46,223 nt of DNA from a virus (lineage: Duplodnaviria > Caudoviricetes): the IMG/VR virus record IMGVR_UViG_3300038312_000302, positions 1 through 46,223 of that record, one strand, 5' to 3'. Numbering within the stretch: the stretch's first letter is position 1; the number at the start of each line of letters is the position of its first letter. Of the stretch, positions 1,511-29,967 are shown in pieces. The position numbers and the translations under genes are program-made. The notes below the pieces were generated by a model that saw nothing but the letters and a program-made list of their open reading frames with translations, was not told where the DNA came from and ran no database searches.

Positions 1511-2065
1511 TTACTCTGGACTAATCTCTGTTTTAAAGTCTAATCCCAACTGTCTATTATTGTTTTCCCAGTCTTCATATGTTAAACTTCTAGCCTCGGC
1601 AAGTTTCTTTTGAGCTTCCGTTAGTCTAGACTTAGCAGATGAAAACTCAGTCTTTACCATTTCTACATATTCCAGCTGTTGATCGAGTAGTGATTGTTTT
1701 TCACTCAAAAACTCTGCTTGTGACGAAAAATGTTTATACAATGCACGATAACACTCGATGCGATATTTACTCACCGCTTCACGAGCCTCTTCTTTCACGT
1801 TTTTTGGATTGATGGTAAAAAGCCATCCGAATACAAATTCAAGAGGCAAACATACCATTTCGTACTGTTTTCCATCGCTTCCAGTTGCCGTGCTGAGCAC
1901 GGTAACTGAATTCAAAAAAACGTCCTCTAGAAGCTTCCTTCTTTGAGCATCTTCATCAATTCCCAGAGCTAAACAAATTGGTTTAATTGGCACCAATTTT
2001 TCTTTGTTGTCTAATACTAATTGAATACTCACTTGATTAACTTTTGCTACTGTTTTTGTTTCCAT
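1511..2065 (-). CDS. Phage antirepressor (P22 Ant N-terminal-like domain) with coiled-coil C-terminus
   Basis: VPIKPICLALGID..QRRKL, GSDGKQYEMVCLPL..GWLFTINPKNVK..Y..ECY.AL pattern typical of P22AR N-terminal domains; ATG at 2065 preferred to TTG at 2071. Confidence 0.85.
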   Translation of the reverse strand: METKTVAKVNQVSIQLVLDNKEKLVPIKPICLALGIDEDAQRRKLLEDVFLNSVTVLSTATGSDGKQYEMVCLPLEFVFGWLFTINPKNVKEEAREAVSKYRIECYRALYKHFSSQAEFLSEKQSLLDQQLEYVEMVKTEFSSAKSRLTEAQKKLAEARSLTYEDWENNNRQLGLDFKTEISPE

Positions 2066-2476: not shown

Positions 2477-2700
2477 AATAGACCTCCTTTCATTGCAGCA
2501 CCGTTTAACTCCTGAACATGAAATGTGGCGCATACGCCATTGCCTATGAGCACAAGTACCATTTCATTACCCATATAGTGCTTTTCGCACTGTACAGGTT
2601 GCCCTTCAAAAAGGGTGTCTATAGCACGGCTGAGTGTGTCTTTTACTACTGTTGTGGGATTTGTTGCTCTCTGTGGAGCAGGTAGAGATTTTGTTTTCAT
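2473..2700 (-). CDS. Hypothetical protein (75 aa), first gene behind RNA element 1
   Basis: ATG preceded by an A-rich leader; ends KGGLL with AAAGGAGG coupling to the next gene. Confidence 0.7.
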   Translation of the reverse strand: MKTKSLPAPQRATNPTTVVKDTLSRAIDTLFEGQPVQCEKHYMGNEMVLVLIGNGVCATFHVQELNGAAMKGGLL

Positions 2701-2747
2701 TTTTGTAAAGCTTTTAAAATGATTATAAATGTGCAGAAATAAAAAGA

Positions 2748-2821
2748 GGGTTCTGCTTTCCCGTTGCTTTACACCTCAAAGGCAGCGAAGGCATTAACCT
2801 TTCGCACGGGGGTCAGAACCC
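2748..2821 (-). ncRNA. Structured RNA element 1 (putative C4/CI-like antisense RNA)
   Basis: Outer stem GGGTTCTG/CAGAACCC, CCCGT/ACGGG, inner GCGAA/TTCGC around GGCATTAAC; homologous to 23839-23911 with compensatory changes. Confidence 0.7.
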
Positions 2822-2903
2822 AAATATTATATTTTATAGAGTCGGCAAAAAAAATGCCCGCATGTTGGCGAGCTTATCCCGCCTTTGAGTATGTAAAGCA
2901 TCA

Positions 2904-2934
2904 CAAAGGTGGATAATATATTTTAAACAGCAAA
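2904..2934 (-). promoter_or_regulatory. Bacteroidetes sigma-A-like promoter for element 1
   Basis: TTTG-N19-CACCTTTG on the minus strand (consensus TTTG-N19-21-TAnnTTTG, one mismatch). Confidence 0.55.
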
Positions 2935-2963
2935 ATGTTTTGCTATTATTTTTTAAATATTTT

Positions 2964-9188: not shown

Positions 9189-9320
9189 TTAATATAACCT
9201 ATCATACAACTTTATAATTATACTTTCATCTGATTTCTCTACAATAACCAGGTACTTTTGAGACAGATGGCGTATTAAATCTGTGTTGAGGTCGCTTGTT
9301 TTTAGCTTTATACAGCTCAT
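9189..9320 (-). CDS. Unannotated 43-aa ORF coupled to the DGR RT
   Basis: MSCIKLKTSDLNTDLIRHLSQKYLVIVEKSDESIIIKLYDRLY; its ATG overlaps the RT stop as ATGA (9317-9320). Confidence 0.55.
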   Translation of the reverse strand: MSCIKLKTSDLNTDLIRHLSQKYLVIVEKSDESIIIKLYDRLY

Positions 9321-10453
9321 TTATATTCATTTTTTAAGGCAAGGATTTCGTAGCGACCTTTAATGTAAACGTATTTAAACATATCTGCATTTATCATAGA
9401 TAGTATATTTTTCCTATTATTATACTCATTATACTGGCGAAGTAAGCCAAGGTATGAGTTTATGGTTGACACAGATTTTTTGATTTCATTGACATTTGAG
9501 GCTCTGTTTAATTTTTTAACCGCTTGTTTGAAGTTATTTATTGTTCTGCCTCCACAATACATTCTATATGTTTTAGCGATTGCTCCGGTAAACTGTACGC
9601 CTTTTGTGTAATGTTGTAAATAAAACTTATTCTCATTTATTGCTAACCCATATTTGGCAAGATGCTCTCTGATTGGCTGAATTACTGATAGTAGTTTTTC
9701 TTTGTTCTGATGGATTAGATAGATATCATCGACATAGCGTCCGTGATGCATAATACCAAGATCGTTTAAATACCAGTCGAGATCATTTAACAAGAAATTA
9801 GCGAAATGCTGTGCATATATATTGCCAATAGCAAGACCCAAGCCATCGCCATTAGTAAATAGAGATTTATTTTTCGGTAGATGATTCCATGATTCTGAAG
9901 GACTACGCATTTCGCAATCATTTTCCGGCTTGTGAAGAGTTATAACTTCACAGACATAGCGAAGATCTTCTATATCGCTACCCTTGTAATTTTGTACGAT
10001 AAAGTTGTCAACCATTTCATGCATCATCTGCTTATTTATGCTCATGAAGAAGCCTTTAAGGTCGAGTTTCATAATATAGCAATCTTTCGTATAGCCTTCG
10101 CTGCATTCAATTATGTCATTGTACAGCATATCAACGCCGTATAGTACGCCTTTATTTTTGCGGCAGCTGAAGGATCTTTCTGATAATACTTCTTCGAACA
10201 AAGGCTCGAGGCGAAGAACAGCATAATGATGAACTATCCTATCTTCAAATGAAGCTGCAAATACCTCTCTGTGCCTTGGACGTGTAACAACAAAACAAAT
10301 TGAAGTTGAGGGTTTGTAAACCCTTCTGTTGATCCTGCCAAGAAGGTTTATCAGGCTTGCTTCGTAGTTGACTTCATAGTCCAGTGCGCTCGCTGTTCTT
10401 CTTTTGCCCGAACGGCAGTTAAAATACGCTTGAAATATATCCTCTATTTTCAT
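9317..10453 (-). CDS. DGR reverse transcriptase
   Basis: REVFAASFEDRIVHH, KLDLKGFFMSI, GLAIGNIYAQHFAN and RYVDD motifs; next to TR and avd; start MKIEDIF (the longer ORF-track start lies inside TR). Confidence 0.96.
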   Translation of the reverse strand: MKIEDIFQAYFNCRSGKRRTASALDYEVNYEASLINLLGRINRRVYKPSTSICFVVTRPRHREVFAASFEDRIVHHYAVLRLEPLFEEVLSERSFSCRKNKGVLYGVDMLYNDIIECSEGYTKDCYIMKLDLKGFFMSINKQMMHEMVDNFIVQNYKGSDIEDLRYVCEVITLHKPENDCEMRSPSESWNHLPKNKSLFTNGDGLGLAIGNIYAQHFANFLLNDLDWYLNDLGIMHHGRYVDDIYLIHQNKEKLLSVIQPIREHLAKYGLAINENKFYLQHYTKGVQFTGAIAKTYRMYCGGRTINNFKQAVKKLNRASNVNEIKKSVSTINSYLGLLRQYNEYNNRKNILSMINADMFKYVYIKGRYEILALKNEYK

Positions 10454-10468
10454 AAATGTTAGTAACAG

Positions 10469-10576
10469 ATGCTGAGACCGGACGCACATTGATGCGATTC
10501 GTCGCCTTATTGTTCGCGTTCATGTTGCCGCTATTCAGGTTCAAGTTCCACGCGTTCGTCGCCGAATTCTCCTTTG
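10469..10576 (-). ncRNA. DGR template repeat (TR)
   Basis: 108-bp ungapped match to 11092-11199; 15 mismatches, all at TR adenines on the minus strand; 11 AAY codons in the target frame. Confidence 0.96.
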
Positions 10577-10646
10577 CCATATTGATTTTCTTAACCTTAA
10601 ATGAAGGTATATAGCCCATTTATTAAATTAACATTAGCCCTCTCGG

Positions 10647-11030
10647 TTAGCCGTGACCTTCCGATTCTCGCTTTATTGCTGAAATAAGTGAATTCTTCCA
10701 AGCCGTTGACTGCCTGCCTATAGATGTAGTTAACGCTGATATTGACGCAAACTTTTTAATGCTTATCCATTTACGCTCTGACGCAATACGAATGAGCGTT
10801 TTGAGCGTTTCAAACTTGGTTTGAAAACTAGTGAGATAATCAATCCTTGTTTTCAGGGACTTATTAATGTAAGCCCCTGAAATATCATTGAGAGCTTCAA
10901 CTGAATACTCCTGCATTTTTGTTCCTATCGTAAACTTATAAGCTTTAGGAAAATCCACAGTGATGTTCAGTATCTCATCGAGAAGAGATCTACAATCTAT
11001 ATATATTTTCGTATTGCTTGATAACCCCAT
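10647..11030 (-). CDS. avd: DGR accessory variability determinant (Avd-like four-helix bundle)
   Basis: 127 aa, basic and helical, FPKAYKFTIG...IGRQSTAW pattern; located between target gene and TR. Confidence 0.88.
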   Translation of the reverse strand: MGLSSNTKIYIDCRSLLDEILNITVDFPKAYKFTIGTKMQEYSVEALNDISGAYINKSLKTRIDYLTSFQTKFETLKTLIRIASERKWISIKKFASISALTTSIGRQSTAWKNSLISAIKRESEGHG

Positions 11031-11041
11031 TTTTGATTGAA

Positions 11042-11063
11042 GCCCTGCGTTTAAACGCAGGGC
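11042..11063. promoter_or_regulatory. Hairpin/cruciform downstream of VR (DGR homing element and/or terminator)
   Basis: Perfect 22-bp palindrome GCCCTGCGTTTAAACGCAGGGC, 17 nt after the target stop codon. Confidence 0.8.
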
Positions 11064-11080
11064 AAAATAACTGTTAACAA

Positions 11081-11779
11081 TTAACCGATAAATGCTGAGA
11101 CCGGACGCACATTGATGCGATACGCCGCCTTACCGTGCGCGCCCATGGCGCCGCTATACAGGTTCAAGTACCACGCGGTCGTCGCCGAACCCTCCGTTGA
11201 TGACCAGTAAGCGCCTTCCAAAAGCGGATTACTGCCGTTAATTAGAGTTAATGCATGATTTATTTTGTGCAGATTTGCGTATATCATCATAAGCTCGCCC
11301 ATTGATGGTAGCCACCATTTGCCGGCTGTGAGGCCAGCGTTATTGGAATTAGGCCGGCTATATAAATTACAATATCCAGGGGCATACTCAACAGTATTCG
11401 TAATAGCCGCCTCTGTTGACGCAGCTACTTGAGATGCTGTGTTAGCCTTCCCTGTCCAATCGTTCAAAGCTAACACCCTGTCTGATGATGTGAAGCCACC
11501 GCCAGCGATTGCGGCACTACTCCAATATAGGGCTGCTGGTTGCGTTATGGATACGACAATATGTCGACCACCCTCAAAAACGCCAACCCCCGATGCTATT
11601 TCACCAGAATTTTGCAAAGCAGTCCATTTATGGAGCTTGCACATTAATGGATAATTATCAGACTTTCTGTGATAAACAATAAATATATTGTCAGTTACAG
11701 TGTTCAGATTTAAGTCTCCAAGAATTTCGGTTTCAATATCCGGTATAACGTTAGATAATTTAACTTTCTTCATTTGCAT
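11081..11779 (-). CDS. DGR target protein with C-terminal C-type-lectin-fold variable domain (probable receptor-binding adhesin)
   Basis: WWLPSMGEL...YWSSTE...AW...VRPVSAF pattern; VR at the 3' end; last gene of the tail-tip cluster. Confidence 0.9.
   Translation of the reverse strand: MQMKKVKLSNVIPDIETEILGDLNLNTVTDNIFIVYHRKSDNYPLMCKLHKWTALQNSGEIASGVGVFEGGRHIVVSITQPAALYWSSAAIAGGGFTSSDRVLALNDWTGKANTASQVAASTEAAITNTVEYAPGYCNLYSRPNSNNAGLTAGKWWLPSMGELMMIYANLHKINHALTLINGSNPLLEGAYWSSTEGSATTAWYLNLYSGAMGAHGKAAYRINVRPVSAFIG
11092..11199 (-). repeat. DGR variable repeat (VR)
   Basis: Encodes TEGSATTAWYLNLYSGAMGAHGKAAYRINVRPVSA; TR in the same frame reads KENSATNAWNLNLNSGNMNANNKATNRINVRPVSA. Confidence 0.96.
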
Positions 11780-23301: not shown

Positions 23302-23549
23302 AGATATACTCTTATATGGTTGAATTCAATTATTGTTATACGACGTATTTTTCGAGGGTAGTATTCACCTTCAGGCATTACATTAAGTGTATCTCCGGAT
23401 GAATGAAATGAAGTGAGTACGCAACTTATATATTCACGTATCTCGCCATTTTGTTTGACGAATTTAACCTGGAATGGAAGGCGTTTGCCATCCTTTCCAA
23501 TTCTCTCCATCATTTCCCAAATTCGGGATTGCTTAATTAATTTACTCAT
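23298..23549 (-). CDS. Hypothetical protein (83 aa) coupled to portal
   Basis: Start MSKLIK; the ORF-track TTG start lies inside the promoter motif. Confidence 0.7.
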   Translation of the reverse strand: MSKLIKQSRIWEMMERIGKDGKRLPFQVKFVKQNGEIREYISCVLTSFHSSGDTLNVMPEGEYYPRKIRRITIIEFNHIRVYL

Positions 23550-23567
23550 CGCGATTGTTTTACAATG

Positions 23568-23602
23568 CAAAACAACCGCTTTTCGGGTGGAAGATAAAGG
23601 AC
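23568..23602 (-). promoter_or_regulatory. Putative late promoter GTCC-N27-TTTG (portal operon)
   Basis: Exact spacing shared with three other late operons. Confidence 0.65.
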
Positions 23603-23630
23603 AAAAAAAAGCTGCCCATGAATGGACAGC
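23603..23630 (-). terminator. Intrinsic terminator closing the element-2 cassette
   Basis: Minus strand GCTGTCCATTCATGGGCAGC followed by T8. Confidence 0.75.
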
Positions 23631-23659
23631 CTATTTTTACAGTGTTTTGAGAAACATAG

Positions 23660-23794
23660 TCATGTTTCGGGTAGCAGAAGCGTTATCAACTCTCTTAATC
23701 GATCATAAGACTCAAGACGTTCTTTCTCATTCTTGCTTTTGAGAAGAGTGTCTAACCAGCCTAATGCTTTTGTTACTGTGATTGATTTACTCAT
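23660..23794 (-). CDS. Unannotated 44-aa peptide (48 aa from ATG 23806), paralog of 2096-2239
   Basis: MSKSITVTKALGWLDTLLKSKNEKERLESYDRLRELITLLLPET; only ORF between RNA element 2 and a terminator. Confidence 0.75.
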   Translation of the reverse strand: MSKSITVTKALGWLDTLLKSKNEKERLESYDRLRELITLLLPET

Positions 23795-23838
23795 TCTGTA
23801 ATGCATTTGAAATGAATATATAGGCAGGAAATAAATAA

Positions 23839-23911
23839 GGTCCTACCTCCCCGTTGCATTACACCTATCATAGGCAGTGGAGGCATTAACACACCACACG
23901 GGAGTAGGACC
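23839..23911 (-). ncRNA. Structured RNA element 2 (putative C4/CI-like antisense RNA)
   Basis: Outer stem GGTCCTAC/GTAGGACC, CCCGT/ACGGG, inner GTGG/CCAC around GGCATTAAC; homologous to 2748-2821. Confidence 0.7.
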
Positions 23912-23982
23912 AGTCTATTAAATGAGCTTAACGCTCTCCTTAATTACGGATCACTCGCCTATGAATAAGATGTAATGCACTG

Positions 23983-24013
23983 CAAAGATCGTAAATGTTT
24001 CGACAGACACAAA
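23983..24013 (-). promoter_or_regulatory. Sigma-A-like promoter for element 2
   Basis: TTTG-N19-GATCTTTG, same geometry as the element 1 promoter. Confidence 0.55.
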
Positions 24014-24072
24014 AAAAATCCAGAGCTACCTTTTCAGTGTATCTCTGGATGATCATAAGTTAAGGTTGTTTA

Positions 24073-24531
24073 TTATTTCCTTTTGATTGCCATACCGGTA
24101 GCAATGTACATAGATGGCCTTAGAACATTGCCATACTTATCATATGTACCGGAGACATATTCTGTCTTTAGATTAATCAATCCATCTGCACCAACATCTG
24201 CAGCTGCAAATACAAGATCCTCGACTACATCATCTATAGTTGCACTGATATAATCGCCATATTTATTGTTAGATGATCTTGTATGATAGTAGACATCATC
24301 AGTCTGATCACCCTTAGTCCCTATAACTTCATATCCACTTTCTATTATAGCAGACAAACTACCGAGTGGTTCATAATCAAAACTGACCGAGTTAGATTCA
24401 GTAATAAAGAATCCCTGTGAGGTATATTTTTCAAAGTCTACTACTGTTGAATAACGGTTGTAGGGATGTTTCACTAAAACACACGAAGACAACAATGCTG
24501 TTAATAAAATAAATACTAAATAATTTTTCAT
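24073..24531 (-). CDS. Lipoprotein moron, YbjQ/UPF0145-like fold
   Basis: Lipobox LSSC; YEPLG..., A..VGADGLINLK, ATGMAIK pattern. Confidence 0.7.
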   Translation of the reverse strand: MKNYLVFILLTALLSSCVLVKHPYNRYSTVVDFEKYTSQGFFITESNSVSFDYEPLGSLSAIIESGYEVIGTKGDQTDDVYYHTRSSNNKYGDYISATIDDVVEDLVFAAADVGADGLINLKTEYVSGTYDKYGNVLRPSMYIATGMAIKRK

Positions 24532-25171: not shown

Positions 25172-25417
25172 ATGACAAAGAAAATTAAAGTTTGCCGTAA
25201 ATGGTCGGGGAGTAAATCAGTGCCGAGCGTGAATCTTCAGGGTATTTATTTACAGGAGTATAATTTTAATATAGGTGATAGCGTGCGGGTAGAGTTTTAC
25301 CGGGACGAGATCCGGATAAAAAAAATGAATGCACGGCAGATCTTACGGCATATGGCCGAAGAAAACCCGGCAGTCTCAGAATTAGTTAGAGAGTTCAACT
25401 GCCAAATTTGCGATTAA
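25172..25417 (+). CDS. symE: SymE-family (AbrB-fold) toxin-like protein
   Basis: VPSVNLQGIYLQEYNFNIGDSVRV matches the SymE P.I.L.G.WL...GF..G..V.V pattern. Confidence 0.65.
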   Translation: MTKKIKVCRKWSGSKSVPSVNLQGIYLQEYNFNIGDSVRVEFYRDEIRIKKMNARQILRHMAEENPAVSELVREFNCQICD

Positions 25418-25602
25418 TGTAATCGTTTTATTGCCTGAGCGGGTCCCTGGATAGGGATCCTCTCGGGCGCTTCTTTCTTTGACCGGGCAAAGAAAGAAGC
25501 AAAGTAACCCGGAATCACCAGCTAAATCAGATAGATTATAGGGTGATGGGAATTTTCTTCTAGAAAATATGTTGTATAACATGCAAAATAGTTACGTTTA
25601 TA

Positions 25603-26418: not shown

Positions 26419-26688
26419 ATGAAAATAGCTATTAAACACAGTACTAAAGGGTTTTTGCTATACAATAAGGATTACCCTGGTGAATTATGGACGGTTGACC
26501 ATAGTAACAGATGGATTAGAATTTTCAGTAATGTTGAGCAGGCAGAACAGTGTGCAAAAACATTGAGAAACTTAGACGGTGAGCTATTGAAAAAGGTTGA
26601 TATTATTGAAATGCTCCCAACATCTGAACCATTTCACTTTGAATCATACAATGTTGTAAAAACAATAATAAATGAAGTTGAAGAATGA
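26419..26688 (+). CDS. Hypothetical protein
   Basis: 89 aa; overlaps the helicase start. Confidence 0.65.
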   Translation: MKIAIKHSTKGFLLYNKDYPGELWTVDHSNRWIRIFSNVEQAEQCAKTLRNLDGELLKKVDIIEMLPTSEPFHFESYNVVKTIINEVEE

Positions 26689-27886
26689 TCAGAAAGCAGC
26701 CAAATCCCATCTGTCCGACTGGCGGGTGGGAGCGTTGTTTATGGAAGCAGGTACCGGTAAAACAAGAGTAGCTGTTGAGATTGCAAATGAAACAACTGCT
26801 GATCTGGTTGTATGGATTGGGCCACTGAGAACGATCAAGCCTAAGGAAGGCATTTCATCCATCATTGATGAAATAAACAGGTGGGGTGGCTTTAAGGCTC
26901 CAGTGATTTTCTTCGGAGTTGAATCTATCTCGCAATCTGACAGAATATTCCTTGAATTGAGAAATACAATAGAGAAAGCCAATAATCCGTTTATCATAGT
27001 GGATGAAAGCCTTAAGATTAAGAACAGCCAGGCAAAACGTACAAAAAGACTTATGGAGTTGAGCCATTTAGCTAAATATAAATTAATTCTAAATGGAACA
27101 CCTATAAGCAAAAATCTTATGGACTTGAAGCCTCAAATGGATTTTTTATCACATAAAATACTCTCGATGAGTGATGCGGAGTATAAGAGCACATTCTGCG
27201 AATATACAAAAGTCACAAAGTATTTTGGCGGTAGAAGAGGCTATACAAAGGAGTTTATAACCGGATATGAAAATATTGATTACCTGTATTCGCTTATAAG
27301 ACATTACGTGTATGAATGTGATCTAAAGCTGAATGTGAGCCAGCAATACAGTGTGTTAAATTATGAGCTGTCGGAGAAAGACAGAGAGGATTACAACTTT
27401 TTGAAAACTAAATATCTTGATAATGAGATGCTGATGTGGAAAAATAATAATATTTTTCTCGAAATGACTCAAAAAATGCAACACGCATATTGTTGTAGTG
27501 AAAGTAAGTTTGAGGCAGTTCAAGATTTGTTTGAAAAAACAGATCCTGAGAAAACGATAATTTACTGCAAGTATATAAATAGCCGGAAAGAATGTGAGAA
27601 AAGATTTCCTAAAGCGACTGTTTTAAGTTATCAAAAAGAATCGTTTGGACTGAATTTACAGCATTTATCTAACACTATATATTTTGATAAGAACTGGGAT
27701 TATGCTTTGAGGATCCATTCGACCAGGAGAACATTCAGGACCGGGCAGGAGTATGATTGTCATTATTGGGATTTGACCGGTGATGTAGGTTTAGAAATAA
27801 TGATAGACAACAACATCGAAAAGAAGATAGATATGGCGGAGTATTTTAAAGGAAAAACTAAAGAAGAATTACGTGAAGTATTATAA
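26672..27886 (+). CDS. Compact SNF2-like superfamily-2 helicase/ATPase
   Basis: Walker A FMEAGTGKT, motif II IIVDESLKIKN, motif III LNGTP, FGLNLQ, motif VI-like RRTFRTGQ. Confidence 0.85.
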   Translation: MKLKNDQKAAKSHLSDWRVGALFMEAGTGKTRVAVEIANETTADLVVWIGPLRTIKPKEGISSIIDEINRWGGFKAPVIFFGVESISQSDRIFLELRNTIEKANNPFIIVDESLKIKNSQAKRTKRLMELSHLAKYKLILNGTPISKNLMDLKPQMDFLSHKILSMSDAEYKSTFCEYTKVTKYFGGRRGYTKEFITGYENIDYLYSLIRHYVYECDLKLNVSQQYSVLNYELSEKDREDYNFLKTKYLDNEMLMWKNNNIFLEMTQKMQHAYCCSESKFEAVQDLFEKTDPEKTIIYCKYINSRKECEKRFPKATVLSYQKESFGLNLQHLSNTIYFDKNWDYALRIHSTRRTFRTGQEYDCHYWDLTGDVGLEIMIDNNIEKKIDMAEYFKGKTKEELREVL

Positions 27887-29084
27887 TAAAAATAAAAACG
27901 TTTACGAAGCAGCAGTTGAGCGATTTGAGATCATATTCAAAGAGTTTGATCGTGTTTGTATTTCGTTCTCAAATGGGAAAGACAGCGGAGTGCTACTAAA
28001 CTTAGCTATTGAAGTAGCCAAGAAGCTGAATAAGCTGCCTGTACATGCAATGTACATTGATATGGAAGCTCAGTATCAGCATTCTATTGATTATACAGTT
28101 AAAATGTTTGACAGGTCTGAGGTAAAGGCTTATTGGATATGCTTACCTATTCATCTGAGAAATGCAGTATCTCAATTTCAAAATCATTGGTTATGTTGGG
28201 ATCCTGATAAAAAAGATGCATGGGTGAGAGATCTGCCGAAGCATCAATCTGTAATATCAGATGAAAGCTACTTCTCTTTTTTTAGACGTGGAATGGAGTT
28301 TGAAGAGTTTACTCCAGAGTTTGCTAAATGGTTTTCACAGGGTGAGAAAACAGCATCTGTGATAGGAATACGAAGCGATGAAAGTTTGAACCGTTATAGA
28401 ACGATAAAGAGTGATAGCAAAATAACCTACAATAATTATCAGTGGACTACGAAGCTTTTTAGAGAAGATCCGGAGCAAGAAATATATAATGCTTATCCTA
28501 TTTATGATTGGCATGTGGAAGATATTTGGACGGCAAATGCTAAATTTGATTGGGAATATAACAAGATTTACGATCTTATGTACATGGCTGGTGTATCATT
28601 GCATAAGCAACGCCTGTGTCAGCCATACGGTGATGACCAGAGGCAAGGCTTGTATTTATTTAAAGCCTTGGAACCTGAAACTTGGGCAAAGATTGTGAAC
28701 AGAGTTGAAGGTGCTAATTTCGGCAACCGTTATACTGAAACTGATAAAACGACCTTGGGTAACTACAAGGTTAATTTACCTCCGGGGCATACATATGAAT
28801 CTTATGCAAAGTTTCTTTTAGACACTATGCCTCCATATTTAGCTGAACACTATCAAACTAAAATAGACACTTTTTTAAAATGGTGGGAGAAAGAGGAAAT
28901 TAAAATAATTCCTGATACAGCAGATCCGAAAATGGAAGCTGCTAGAAAAGCACCTAGCTGGAGACGTATATGTAAAGTATTACTTAAAAATGATTATTGG
29001 TGTAAAGGTTTATCTTTCTCACAAACTAAGCGAGAACTCGAAAAGCAAATGGAAATAATAACAAAATACTCAGATATATTATGA
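27873..29084 (+). CDS. ibrA: IbrA-like PAPS-reductase-family (PP-loop) protein with DUF3440-like C-terminus
   Basis: SFSNGKDS PP-loop, IGIRSDESLNR, YPIYDW..EDIW, QRLCQPYG, SWRRICK.LLKNDYWC. Confidence 0.88.
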   Translation: MKYYNKNKNVYEAAVERFEIIFKEFDRVCISFSNGKDSGVLLNLAIEVAKKLNKLPVHAMYIDMEAQYQHSIDYTVKMFDRSEVKAYWICLPIHLRNAVSQFQNHWLCWDPDKKDAWVRDLPKHQSVISDESYFSFFRRGMEFEEFTPEFAKWFSQGEKTASVIGIRSDESLNRYRTIKSDSKITYNNYQWTTKLFREDPEQEIYNAYPIYDWHVEDIWTANAKFDWEYNKIYDLMYMAGVSLHKQRLCQPYGDDQRQGLYLFKALEPETWAKIVNRVEGANFGNRYTETDKTTLGNYKVNLPPGHTYESYAKFLLDTMPPYLAEHYQTKIDTFLKWWEKEEIKIIPDTADPKMEAARKAPSWRRICKVLLKNDYWCKGLSFSQTKRELEKQMEIITKYSDIL

Positions 29085-29674
29085 AGATAGATTTACCAGA
29101 AAATATAACTATAGATGAAAAGGTTTCATTATTTAATGATTTAACACAGCAACTGTATGATTGGATTGGATTAAAACATCCATCTCTTAATGTGCAGTTA
29201 ATTAAGGCAGAACAAATTCAGGGCAACGATTATAACCCTAATAAGGTTGCGCCACCCGAAATGAAATTATTGAAGCTATCAATAAAAAAAGATGGAGTGA
29301 CTATGCCAGTTGTAGTTGCGAATCAAGACAAAAAGAGGATGCCGTATGTTGTTGTTGATGGTTTTCATAGAACAACAGTAATTAGCCAGGATAAAGAGAT
29401 TAATGAAAGCCTTGCCGGCTATGTGCCTACATCTAGGCTAAACAAATCAATTGAAGATAGAATAACGGCTACTGTGAGGCATAACATGGCCAGAGGCACA
29501 CATCAGGTTGAATTATCGGCAAAGTTGGTTGCAATGCTTAAGAAGCATAATTGGACAAACGCTCGCATTGGAATGGAGCTTGGAATGGATGCGGACGAAG
29601 TATTGAGACTCAAACAAATAACAGGATTAGCAGAATTATTTAAAGACAAAGAATTTAGTAACTCATGGAAATGA
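29081..29674 (+). CDS. ibrB: IbrB-like ParB/Srx-domain protein
   Basis: NDYNPNKVAPPEMKLLKLSI..DG.TMP, VVDGFHR, ATVRHNMARG.H, LGMDADEVLRLKQITGL. Confidence 0.9.
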   Translation: MKIDLPENITIDEKVSLFNDLTQQLYDWIGLKHPSLNVQLIKAEQIQGNDYNPNKVAPPEMKLLKLSIKKDGVTMPVVVANQDKKRMPYVVVDGFHRTTVISQDKEINESLAGYVPTSRLNKSIEDRITATVRHNMARGTHQVELSAKLVAMLKKHNWTNARIGMELGMDADEVLRLKQITGLAELFKDKEFSNSWK

Positions 29675-29967
29675 AAGAGAATAATTATGAATGGCAATTA
29701 ATGGTATTGACCTTGAAAGAAATTGCATCGGATAAGAAGATTACGCATGAAATGATTGCAGAGCGTGCAGGAATGGCGAGAGATAATGTGACAAGGTTTT
29801 TTTCGGCCAAACATAAGCCTAACCTTGATATGTTTTTGACTATTGCTAAGGCTATTGGGGTTTACTTTTATTTTGAAGATAAAGACGGCACTTCAGACTT
29901 GACACGGAGTTTTGACAGGGCTATGACAGAACTAGGTCGTAGAGGTGAAATAATGAGCAGAAATTAA
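29671..29967 (+). CDS. Xre/Cro-C1 HTH regulator
   Basis: ITHEMIAERAGMARDNVTRFFS...PNLDMFLTIAKAIG; ATGA-coupled to ibrB. Confidence 0.85.
   Translation: MKENNYEWQLMVLTLKEIASDKKITHEMIAERAGMARDNVTRFFSAKHKPNLDMFLTIAKAIGVYFYFEDKDGTSDLTRSFDRAMTELGRRGEIMSRN

Follow-up and report, generated by a model that had tools for sequence, protein, structure and literature searches.

The RNA switches closest in design to the locus analysed here are the C4 RNA of phages P1 and P7 and the CI RNA of phage P4, both of which are processed by RNase P, with kil being the gene behind P4 CI. The annotated P1 locus runs in the order promoter, a1, b1, 77-nt C4, a2, b2, icd and ant, and a further point of comparison is given by the type I toxin–antitoxin systems, of which hok/sok, tisB/istR and symE/symR are examples. 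Two accounts have c4 block the region where the ribosome binds and make it the basis of P1/P7 heteroimmunity (PMC12197685, PMC6906374), and a third lists C4 for Proteobacteria and phages (PMC2864571). P4 CI, as the accessible text of PMC4825925 has it, is processed from its own transcript and pairs with sites up- and downstream. An earlier note on the present DNA had been written without the P1 C4 and P4 CI precedent, in which heteroimmunity based on such codes was already known. We consider it quite probable that the cassette described here, named element 2, is a shortened Bacteroidota RNA lock of the C4/CI-like kind, which would release a pulse of peptide only where the matching RNA is absent and would then be shut off.

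The DNA analysed, referred to below as the window, is a stretch of 46,223 nucleotides of a temperate phage of Bacteroidota type, with an integrase beside a tRNA end, tape measure, DGR reverse transcriptase, Avd, amidase, portal-like and primase genes. The DGR lies at 9317-11779 on the minus strand and comprises the reverse transcriptase, Avd and an Lcl-domain gene as its possible target, and a single oppositely oriented block at 26672-29967 (plus strand) carries SNF2 helicase, PAPS-reductase/DUF3440, ParB and HTH genes. SymE is weakly matched (E 0.033) by an 81-aa ORF at 25172-25417 (plus strand), after which comes a hairpin-rich stretch at about 25430-25500; the similar ORF of locus L114 matches SymE at 4.6e-6. 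Element 2 occupies 23603-24013 on the minus strand, between a predicted lipoprotein gene (24073-24531) and an 83-aa gene preceding the portal, and all the coordinates given for it earlier match the sequence base for base.

Read in the direction of transcription, the cassette begins with a TTTG −33 box (24013-24010) placed 19 nt before the −7 box GATCTTTG (23990-23983), an arrangement that we take, by the Bacteroides consensus, to be a promoter of the Bacteroidota type. The transcript start predicted from the −7 box is at about 23980, and the leader site follows directly (23979-23957), complementary to the arm (23875-23855), the 3′ half of a 73-nt three-way-junction RNA (23911-23839). The latter is supported by its fold, by internal covariation and by a family-model score of 79.6 bits, from a model built with the element 2 sequence included. 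Within the leader, the seed part (23971-23979) is equivalent to a1 of P1, and a second part equivalent to b1 (23957-23963) has its pairing partner on the 5′ side of hairpin 3. The seed TGTAATGCA (23855-23863), containing the five-base code TAATG, takes the position of a′ in P1 C4, and its second target, equivalent to a2, covers the translation start region at 23797-23805, 2 nt before the ATG at 23794 that opens the 44-aa peptide ORF (23660-23794); a second in-frame ATG at 23806 would give a 48-aa version. The cassette closes with a GC hairpin resembling an intrinsic terminator (23630-23611) and eight T, together spanning 23603-23630, and a similar hairpin is also found in loci L108-L111. The 9-mer of element 2 occurs three times in the window, all inside 190 bp, against 0.68 occurrences expected over 46 kb, and the region 23600-23990 has a folding z of −5.5.

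Pattern scans gave 78 viral loci, 28 genome loci and at least 120 further viral loci (about 330 estimated), and the 253 sequences examined were reduced to 148 distinct elements with full flanks and to 108 after removing 90% look-alikes. Nearly all of the 28 genome loci are in Bacteroidota records, with four labelled as Firmicutes and one unassigned. Genome surveys returned 1 of 151 genomes with the RNA model (the centre itself), 3 of 401 with the pattern, including the centre, and one weak match in 401 with the peptide profile; they are no measure of rarity, given that the RNA-model search scored 28 of several hundred candidates per genome. Exact element 2 patterns retrieved only identical copies. 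Rfam showed no match to the cassette at the gathering threshold, and the C4-type Rfam models found nothing in 23500-24100 at E up to 10 and nothing in eight other family loci at E up to 0.5. Full-text literature searches, in which few subscription papers were included, yielded no description of the switch family; it is not described in the accessible portions of PMC2864571, PMC3632133, PMC4825925, PMC5737381, PMC6906374 and PMC12197685, and the available part of PMC12135933 holds nothing bearing on it. The family motif is absent from supplement files 1-6 of Fremin and Bhatt (PMC8040213), as far as these were available, and the switch family may be among the unnamed candidates of their alignments.

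A survey of code diversity, as proposed earlier, revealed 23 five-base codes among the 108 non-redundant copies, with the second code base fixed by the search pattern and further codes seen outside these 23. Directly behind the −7 box, 106 of the 108 copies have a leader site that matches their RNA code, vs. 41 of 10518 non-cognate pairings (0.4%). The remaining two are a copy whose −7 box is a variant and whose leader site is cognate by eye, and L133, a true mismatch. Downstream, an exact 5-mer matching the code is present in 84 of 108 copies, vs. 8.9% for non-cognate pairings; it lies 2–7 nt before an ATG in 69 of these 84, most often at 4 nt (34 of 84), and among the 24 copies without an exact downstream 5-mer, about six have no site by eye. 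Pairing of the b1 type is also seen, with the 7-nt strand fully pairing the leader in 101 of 107 copies through 46 different sequences. Relatedness alone is not sufficient to explain this covariation, because 23 codes need at least 22 matched changes, and the sequences thus argue strongly that the arm–target pairing is under selection. In L133, two identical tandem copies (1479-1570 and 1948-2039, minus strand) carry an RNA code mismatched to their own targets, and this pair is possibly an escape mutant or an assembly artefact.

These counts bear on what had been proposed from the letters of element 2. The complementarity of the arm to the transcript-start site was borne out by the covariation in 106 of 108 copies; of the proposal that the arm pairs with both sites, the leader half holds, but the start-codon site pairs with the 8–9-nt seed only and not with the whole arm. 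The TTTG-N19 promoters were placed correctly, but the first base of the −7 box, once called non-consensus, is ordinary in the family, where the first two bases are TA in 58, CA in 45 and GA in 4 of 107 members. TTTG stands 17–22 nt upstream of the −7 box in 64 of 107, with a spacing of 19 nt in 46 of those.

The RNA consists of a bulged closing stem, hairpin 2 with a GUUAAUGC loop, hairpin 3 and a single-stranded joint of 8–9 nt that holds the seed, and its length in the family is 71–88 nt, with a mean of 77. Changes on both sides are found in 12 of 21 stem pairs in 56 sequences, a figure reached by none of 500 shuffles, the structure having been derived from the same 56 sequences; the invariant core columns of the family are also partly fixed by the search patterns. 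In folding, 105 of 107 copies with a free leader have the arm paired to it and the closing stem disrupted, and when the first 30 nt are blocked, the closing stem forms in 69 of 107, including both window elements. When the leader holds the arm, the MFE fold gives the 3′ strand of the closing stem a possible partner in a box at 23822-23829. Only 54 of 107 copies have such a box that outdoes at least 29 of 30 shuffles, and this predicted pairing is moderately supported. The mean leader–RNA duplex is −34.9 for a copy's own RNA, −25.3 for the same code and −17.4 for another code, and the RNA itself is thus the best ligand of the leader.

With respect to termination, 93 of 107 copies have at least six T among the ten bases that follow the stem; a leader T-run is present in 99 of 107 and a strict T-run behind the stem in 75 of 107, with element 2 having neither, the T-run behind its stem being weak. 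Contigs from four RNA libraries of four studies, four of the six RNA holders listed, cover the RNA and peptide; in three of the four runs they end at 23643-23648, shortly ahead of the terminator, and one contig covers 23646-23973. These ends are a weak hint of transcript start and stop, and the contigs of runs X17 and X20, which cover the portal gene too, could be DNA or lytic RNA. In the X17 and X20 contigs, from two studies, the same core and peptide are preceded from 23914 by another upstream sequence, a strain variant of the leader.

The window contains a second switch, element 1 (2690-2935, minus strand; RNA 2821-2748), with the code TAAAG, and these two are the only matches of the family model in the window. 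The view that element 2 repeats the geometry of element 1 with a different code is confirmed by the layout comparison and by the family model. Element 1 heads ORFs of 75, 74 and 47 aa and a P22_AR_N antirepressor (1511-2071), and its 47-aa ORF (2096-2239) is a paralogue of the element 2 peptide: pairwise BLAST finds nothing between the two, and a profile search links them. The duplex energies of the element 1 and element 2 codes are −30.3 and −32.3 kcal/mol with their own sites vs. −21.5 and −19.5 kcal/mol with each other's. Of the suggestion that the two codes form orthogonal immunity groups, the much stronger cognate duplexes agree with it, and orthogonality itself is plausible, the principle being already known from P1/P7. 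We set aside the argument that co-resident switches always differ in code, given that random pairs share a code in just 9% of cases; two co-resident pairs with the same code exist (L133 and L080/L100). Since a phage identical over the element 2 region (L107, also G005) has only the element 2 switch, element 1 is exchangeable.

The peptide belongs to a stand-alone phage family with 154 matches in 65 clusters at 50% identity, almost all of 39–49 aa. It is predicted to form an amphipathic helical hairpin (helices 7-19 and 23-40, pLDDT 85) with no hydrophobic segment, the best 19-residue hydropathy being 0.39 and 15 of its 44 residues being charged. Foldseek gave no fold match at E up to 0.001, Pfam and PHROGs no family at useful E, and an Atlas search a best value of 0.75, which we counted as a non-result. 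The peptide is the sole cargo of element 2, as had been said, but the further proposal that RNA and peptide make up the core unit did not survive, given that, of the 92 copies for which 1 kb or more of downstream sequence is available, only 8 are followed by the peptide, that no element except element 2 has it as its first ORF, and that it belongs to a longer operon in relatives. In L108-L111, a switch with another code is followed by a 59–61-aa ORF before the peptide; L113 has two ORFs between switch and peptide in the same slot, and L112 and L114 have the slot without the cassette. Among eight phages found through their portal, one is identical to the element 2 region. Element 2 is best read, on the sequences compared, as a shortened yet stable form, because two homologues begin with residues encoded by the same start-site code. 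The survey of cargo genes, also proposed earlier, found antirepressor-type, HNH-NUMOD4, SymE and peptide-family genes behind the switches. Antirepressor-type domains (ANT, KilA-N, Bro-N, P22_AR_N, Rha) were identified downstream of 21 of the 92 copies, among them element 1, from a scan of 69 of the 93 ORFs of at least 110 aa, the other 24 being duplicates, portals, overlapping frames or ORFs covered in an earlier domain search. Further cargo consists of HNH-NUMOD4 nucleases, which the switches of L002, L004 and L006 head with the start codon within the target site, and of one SymE toxin in a Terrimonas genome (L105:1600-1926), headed directly by a switch with the element 2 code and followed by parDE. 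Most likely, the peptide is no membrane toxin and would take the place that Icd has in P1, Kil in P4 and Orf45 in Gifsy, as an accessory effector that acts early in antirepressor-type operons.

The proposed lock would work as follows. As folding and covariation show, the leader of a free nascent transcript takes up the arm, which prevents the closing stem from forming and keeps the start site accessible; once the leader is occupied, the RNA is predicted to fold instead into the tRNA-like three-way junction. From P1 and P4 we infer that this junction would be excised as a stable RNA of about 73 nt, which would bind the leaders of new transcripts, so that more RNA is made, and also the start site, thus blocking translation. 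In most family members, transcription would also terminate at the T-run that follows the stem, and because strong T-runs are missing in element 2, its control is likely to be mainly translational. By the same analogy, the RNA would act in trans on incoming phages of the same code and possibly silence them. Overall, the lock would amplify itself, standing open in a naive cell and closing as the RNA builds up, and the earlier proposal of expression only in cells lacking the cognate RNA fits the folding, as described for P1 c4 and P4 CI. The lock is supported by the two-site covariation over 23 codes, the two exclusive folds, the internal covariation, the order, size and topology shared with the P1 locus, the antirepressor-type genes downstream of 21 of 92 copies, and the longer versions that occupy this slot in L108-L111 and L113. 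Against it count the blocked leader, which restores the closing stem in just 69 of 107 copies, and the 71 of 92 copies (about three quarters) with no recognised antirepressor within 1.5 kb, together with the 24 of 108 copies that lack an exact downstream 5-mer and the T-runs missing from element 2, and, with no sequence link to C4 or CI, the analogy may be one of convergence.

The same observations bear on other explanations. All of the covariation observed is within one transcript, and a protein might bind the invariant loop of hairpin 2, as would suit a purely cis-acting attenuator whose folds alternate through the ribosome, polymerase speed or a protein, with no RNA in trans; but such a device would gain nothing from at least 23 different codes or from keeping whole switches with a cut-off gene, and the leader–arm fold wins in 105 of 107 copies unless the leader is occupied, with the RNA as the leader's best complement, so we think this rather unlikely. 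The earlier note had named an RNA-antitoxin addiction module as one of two readings. In such a module, or in one of abortive infection, a toxic peptide would be released upon loss of the RNA or its titration by an incoming leader. The peptide as sole cargo of element 2 would suit it, the direct form recurs in P0179 and P0180, which keep the site right before the peptide, a toxin can follow the switch (in L105, the first ORF encodes SymE), and the leader RNA IsrK of Gifsy-1 activates its own operon in trans, according to the accessible part of PMC4825925. But the peptide is a soluble helical hairpin found behind few copies, the slot is empty in L112 and L114, and antitoxin and message share one promoter and one transcript, with the structured, processed RNA expected to be stable, the reverse of what addiction needs; we regard an addiction module as unlikely.

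It could also be argued that element 2 is the decaying remnant of a longer operon and no longer important, considering that the first ORF is missing compared with L108-L113, that the leader hairpin and T-run are lost, and that contigs from the RNA libraries of two studies have another leader ahead of core and peptide. With the promoter, both sites, the fold and the ORF all intact, and homologues at 75–91% identity keeping the same start-site code before the peptide, this seems to us very unlikely.

Switches of the family also occur in stacks. In eight independent cases (L145, L193, L030, L148 and L104, read directly, and L033, L059 and L196, by eye or from an earlier listing), two family switches with different codes lie 290–440 nt apart, and the first ORF of the upstream switch, homologous to that of the downstream switch, extends into the promoter of the latter; L133, a duplicate with a single code, is not a stack of this type, and 96 further loci contained no extra family stacks. 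We also noted a second RNA scaffold with a long closing stem, whose code, reaching about 15 nt, is matched in the leader and at the start site; it is most evident in L068 (1824-1912, minus strand) and is also seen in L010, L040, L056, L003, L033, L137, L017, L096 and L190; it has no match in Rfam and does not occur in the window. It lies upstream of family switches, an adjacency given by design since its loci were chosen via the first family, and its ORF runs into the next promoter in 12 of 14 distinct matches by a crude count, about 8 of them clear; L003 and L033 are triple stacks. The stacked upstream switches with cut genes suggest retained RNA keys. It is a tentative idea, which we hold with some doubt, that phages collect such keys, with a new-code switch inserting into the first gene of the old one, taking over the operon and evading residents that carry the old code, and the old cargo-less switch being kept to silence rivals of the old code, and element 2 would then be a kept key beside element 1. 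Different codes in stacks are unsurprising by themselves, given the 9% chance of a match, and recency could explain the intact upstream switches.

If the lock is right, gut and digester Bacteroidota phages have a P1-type RNA immunity layer missed by annotation. It would have at least 23 natural codes whose compatibility is readable from sequence, so that cross-immunity between prophages could be predicted in a testable way. The codes would also form a natural series in which to follow changes in a code with three sites, and Bacteroides engineering would gain a small collection of RNA switches that amplify themselves and are likely to be orthogonal.

Compared with the type I toxin–antitoxin systems, element 2 also has a small RNA that would mask the start of a small protein, but its antitoxin would be co-transcribed and structured, the peptide is not of the membrane type, and RNA and peptide are not an obligate pair (8 of 92). 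With the Gifsy-1 IsrK/STnc1160/orf45-anrP region, as presented in the accessible part of PMC4825925, the family shares a leader hairpin and T-run with a presumably stable RNA behind, and element 1 also an ORF of about 45 aa before an antirepressor; element 2, in contrast, has no leader T-run and no antirepressor, and IsrK had no match in the Rfam scans. As in P4 CI with its seqA/seqC and kil, the RNA would be taken from the transcript that it controls, with targets on both sides, and termination-type control is possible considering the T-rich tail in 93 of 107 copies, but there is no sequence match, the T-run of element 2 is weak and the cargo is unrelated by Pfam and PHROGs.

The immI region of P1/P7 with its C4 RNA (RF01695) shares the order of promoter, targets, RNA of about 77 nt and target at the start of a small ORF, the bulged stem with two hairpins and a single-stranded seed (a′) before the closing strand, the downstream antirepressor (ant1/2 in P1; element 1 and 21 of 92 copies here), and a specificity set by a few bases, as the available portions of PMC6906374 and PMC12197685 have it. 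Like these RNAs, the 73-nt three-way junction sits within the leader of its own operon, with covarying sites up- and downstream. The differences are that no Rfam or model match exists in either direction, the model of the Bacteroidota family giving no score to P1 C4 or the P4 cI region; that the promoter is of the Bacteroidota type, with the seed (a′) rather than b′ nearest the start codon; that the leader site is one long helix starting at +1, and that element 2 has no b2; and that there is no Icd-like protein and, in element 2, no antirepressor. Duplex predictions give a1, b1 and a2 in element 2 with no b2, so that two separate words are not found at both places; in the subfamily of L036 and L076, a longer match downstream can be made out by eye. 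In summary, the family by analogy appears to work like C4/CI without being a member of the Rfam C4 family, and the Bacteroidota switches, with their principle known from P1/P7, are well supported by covariation.
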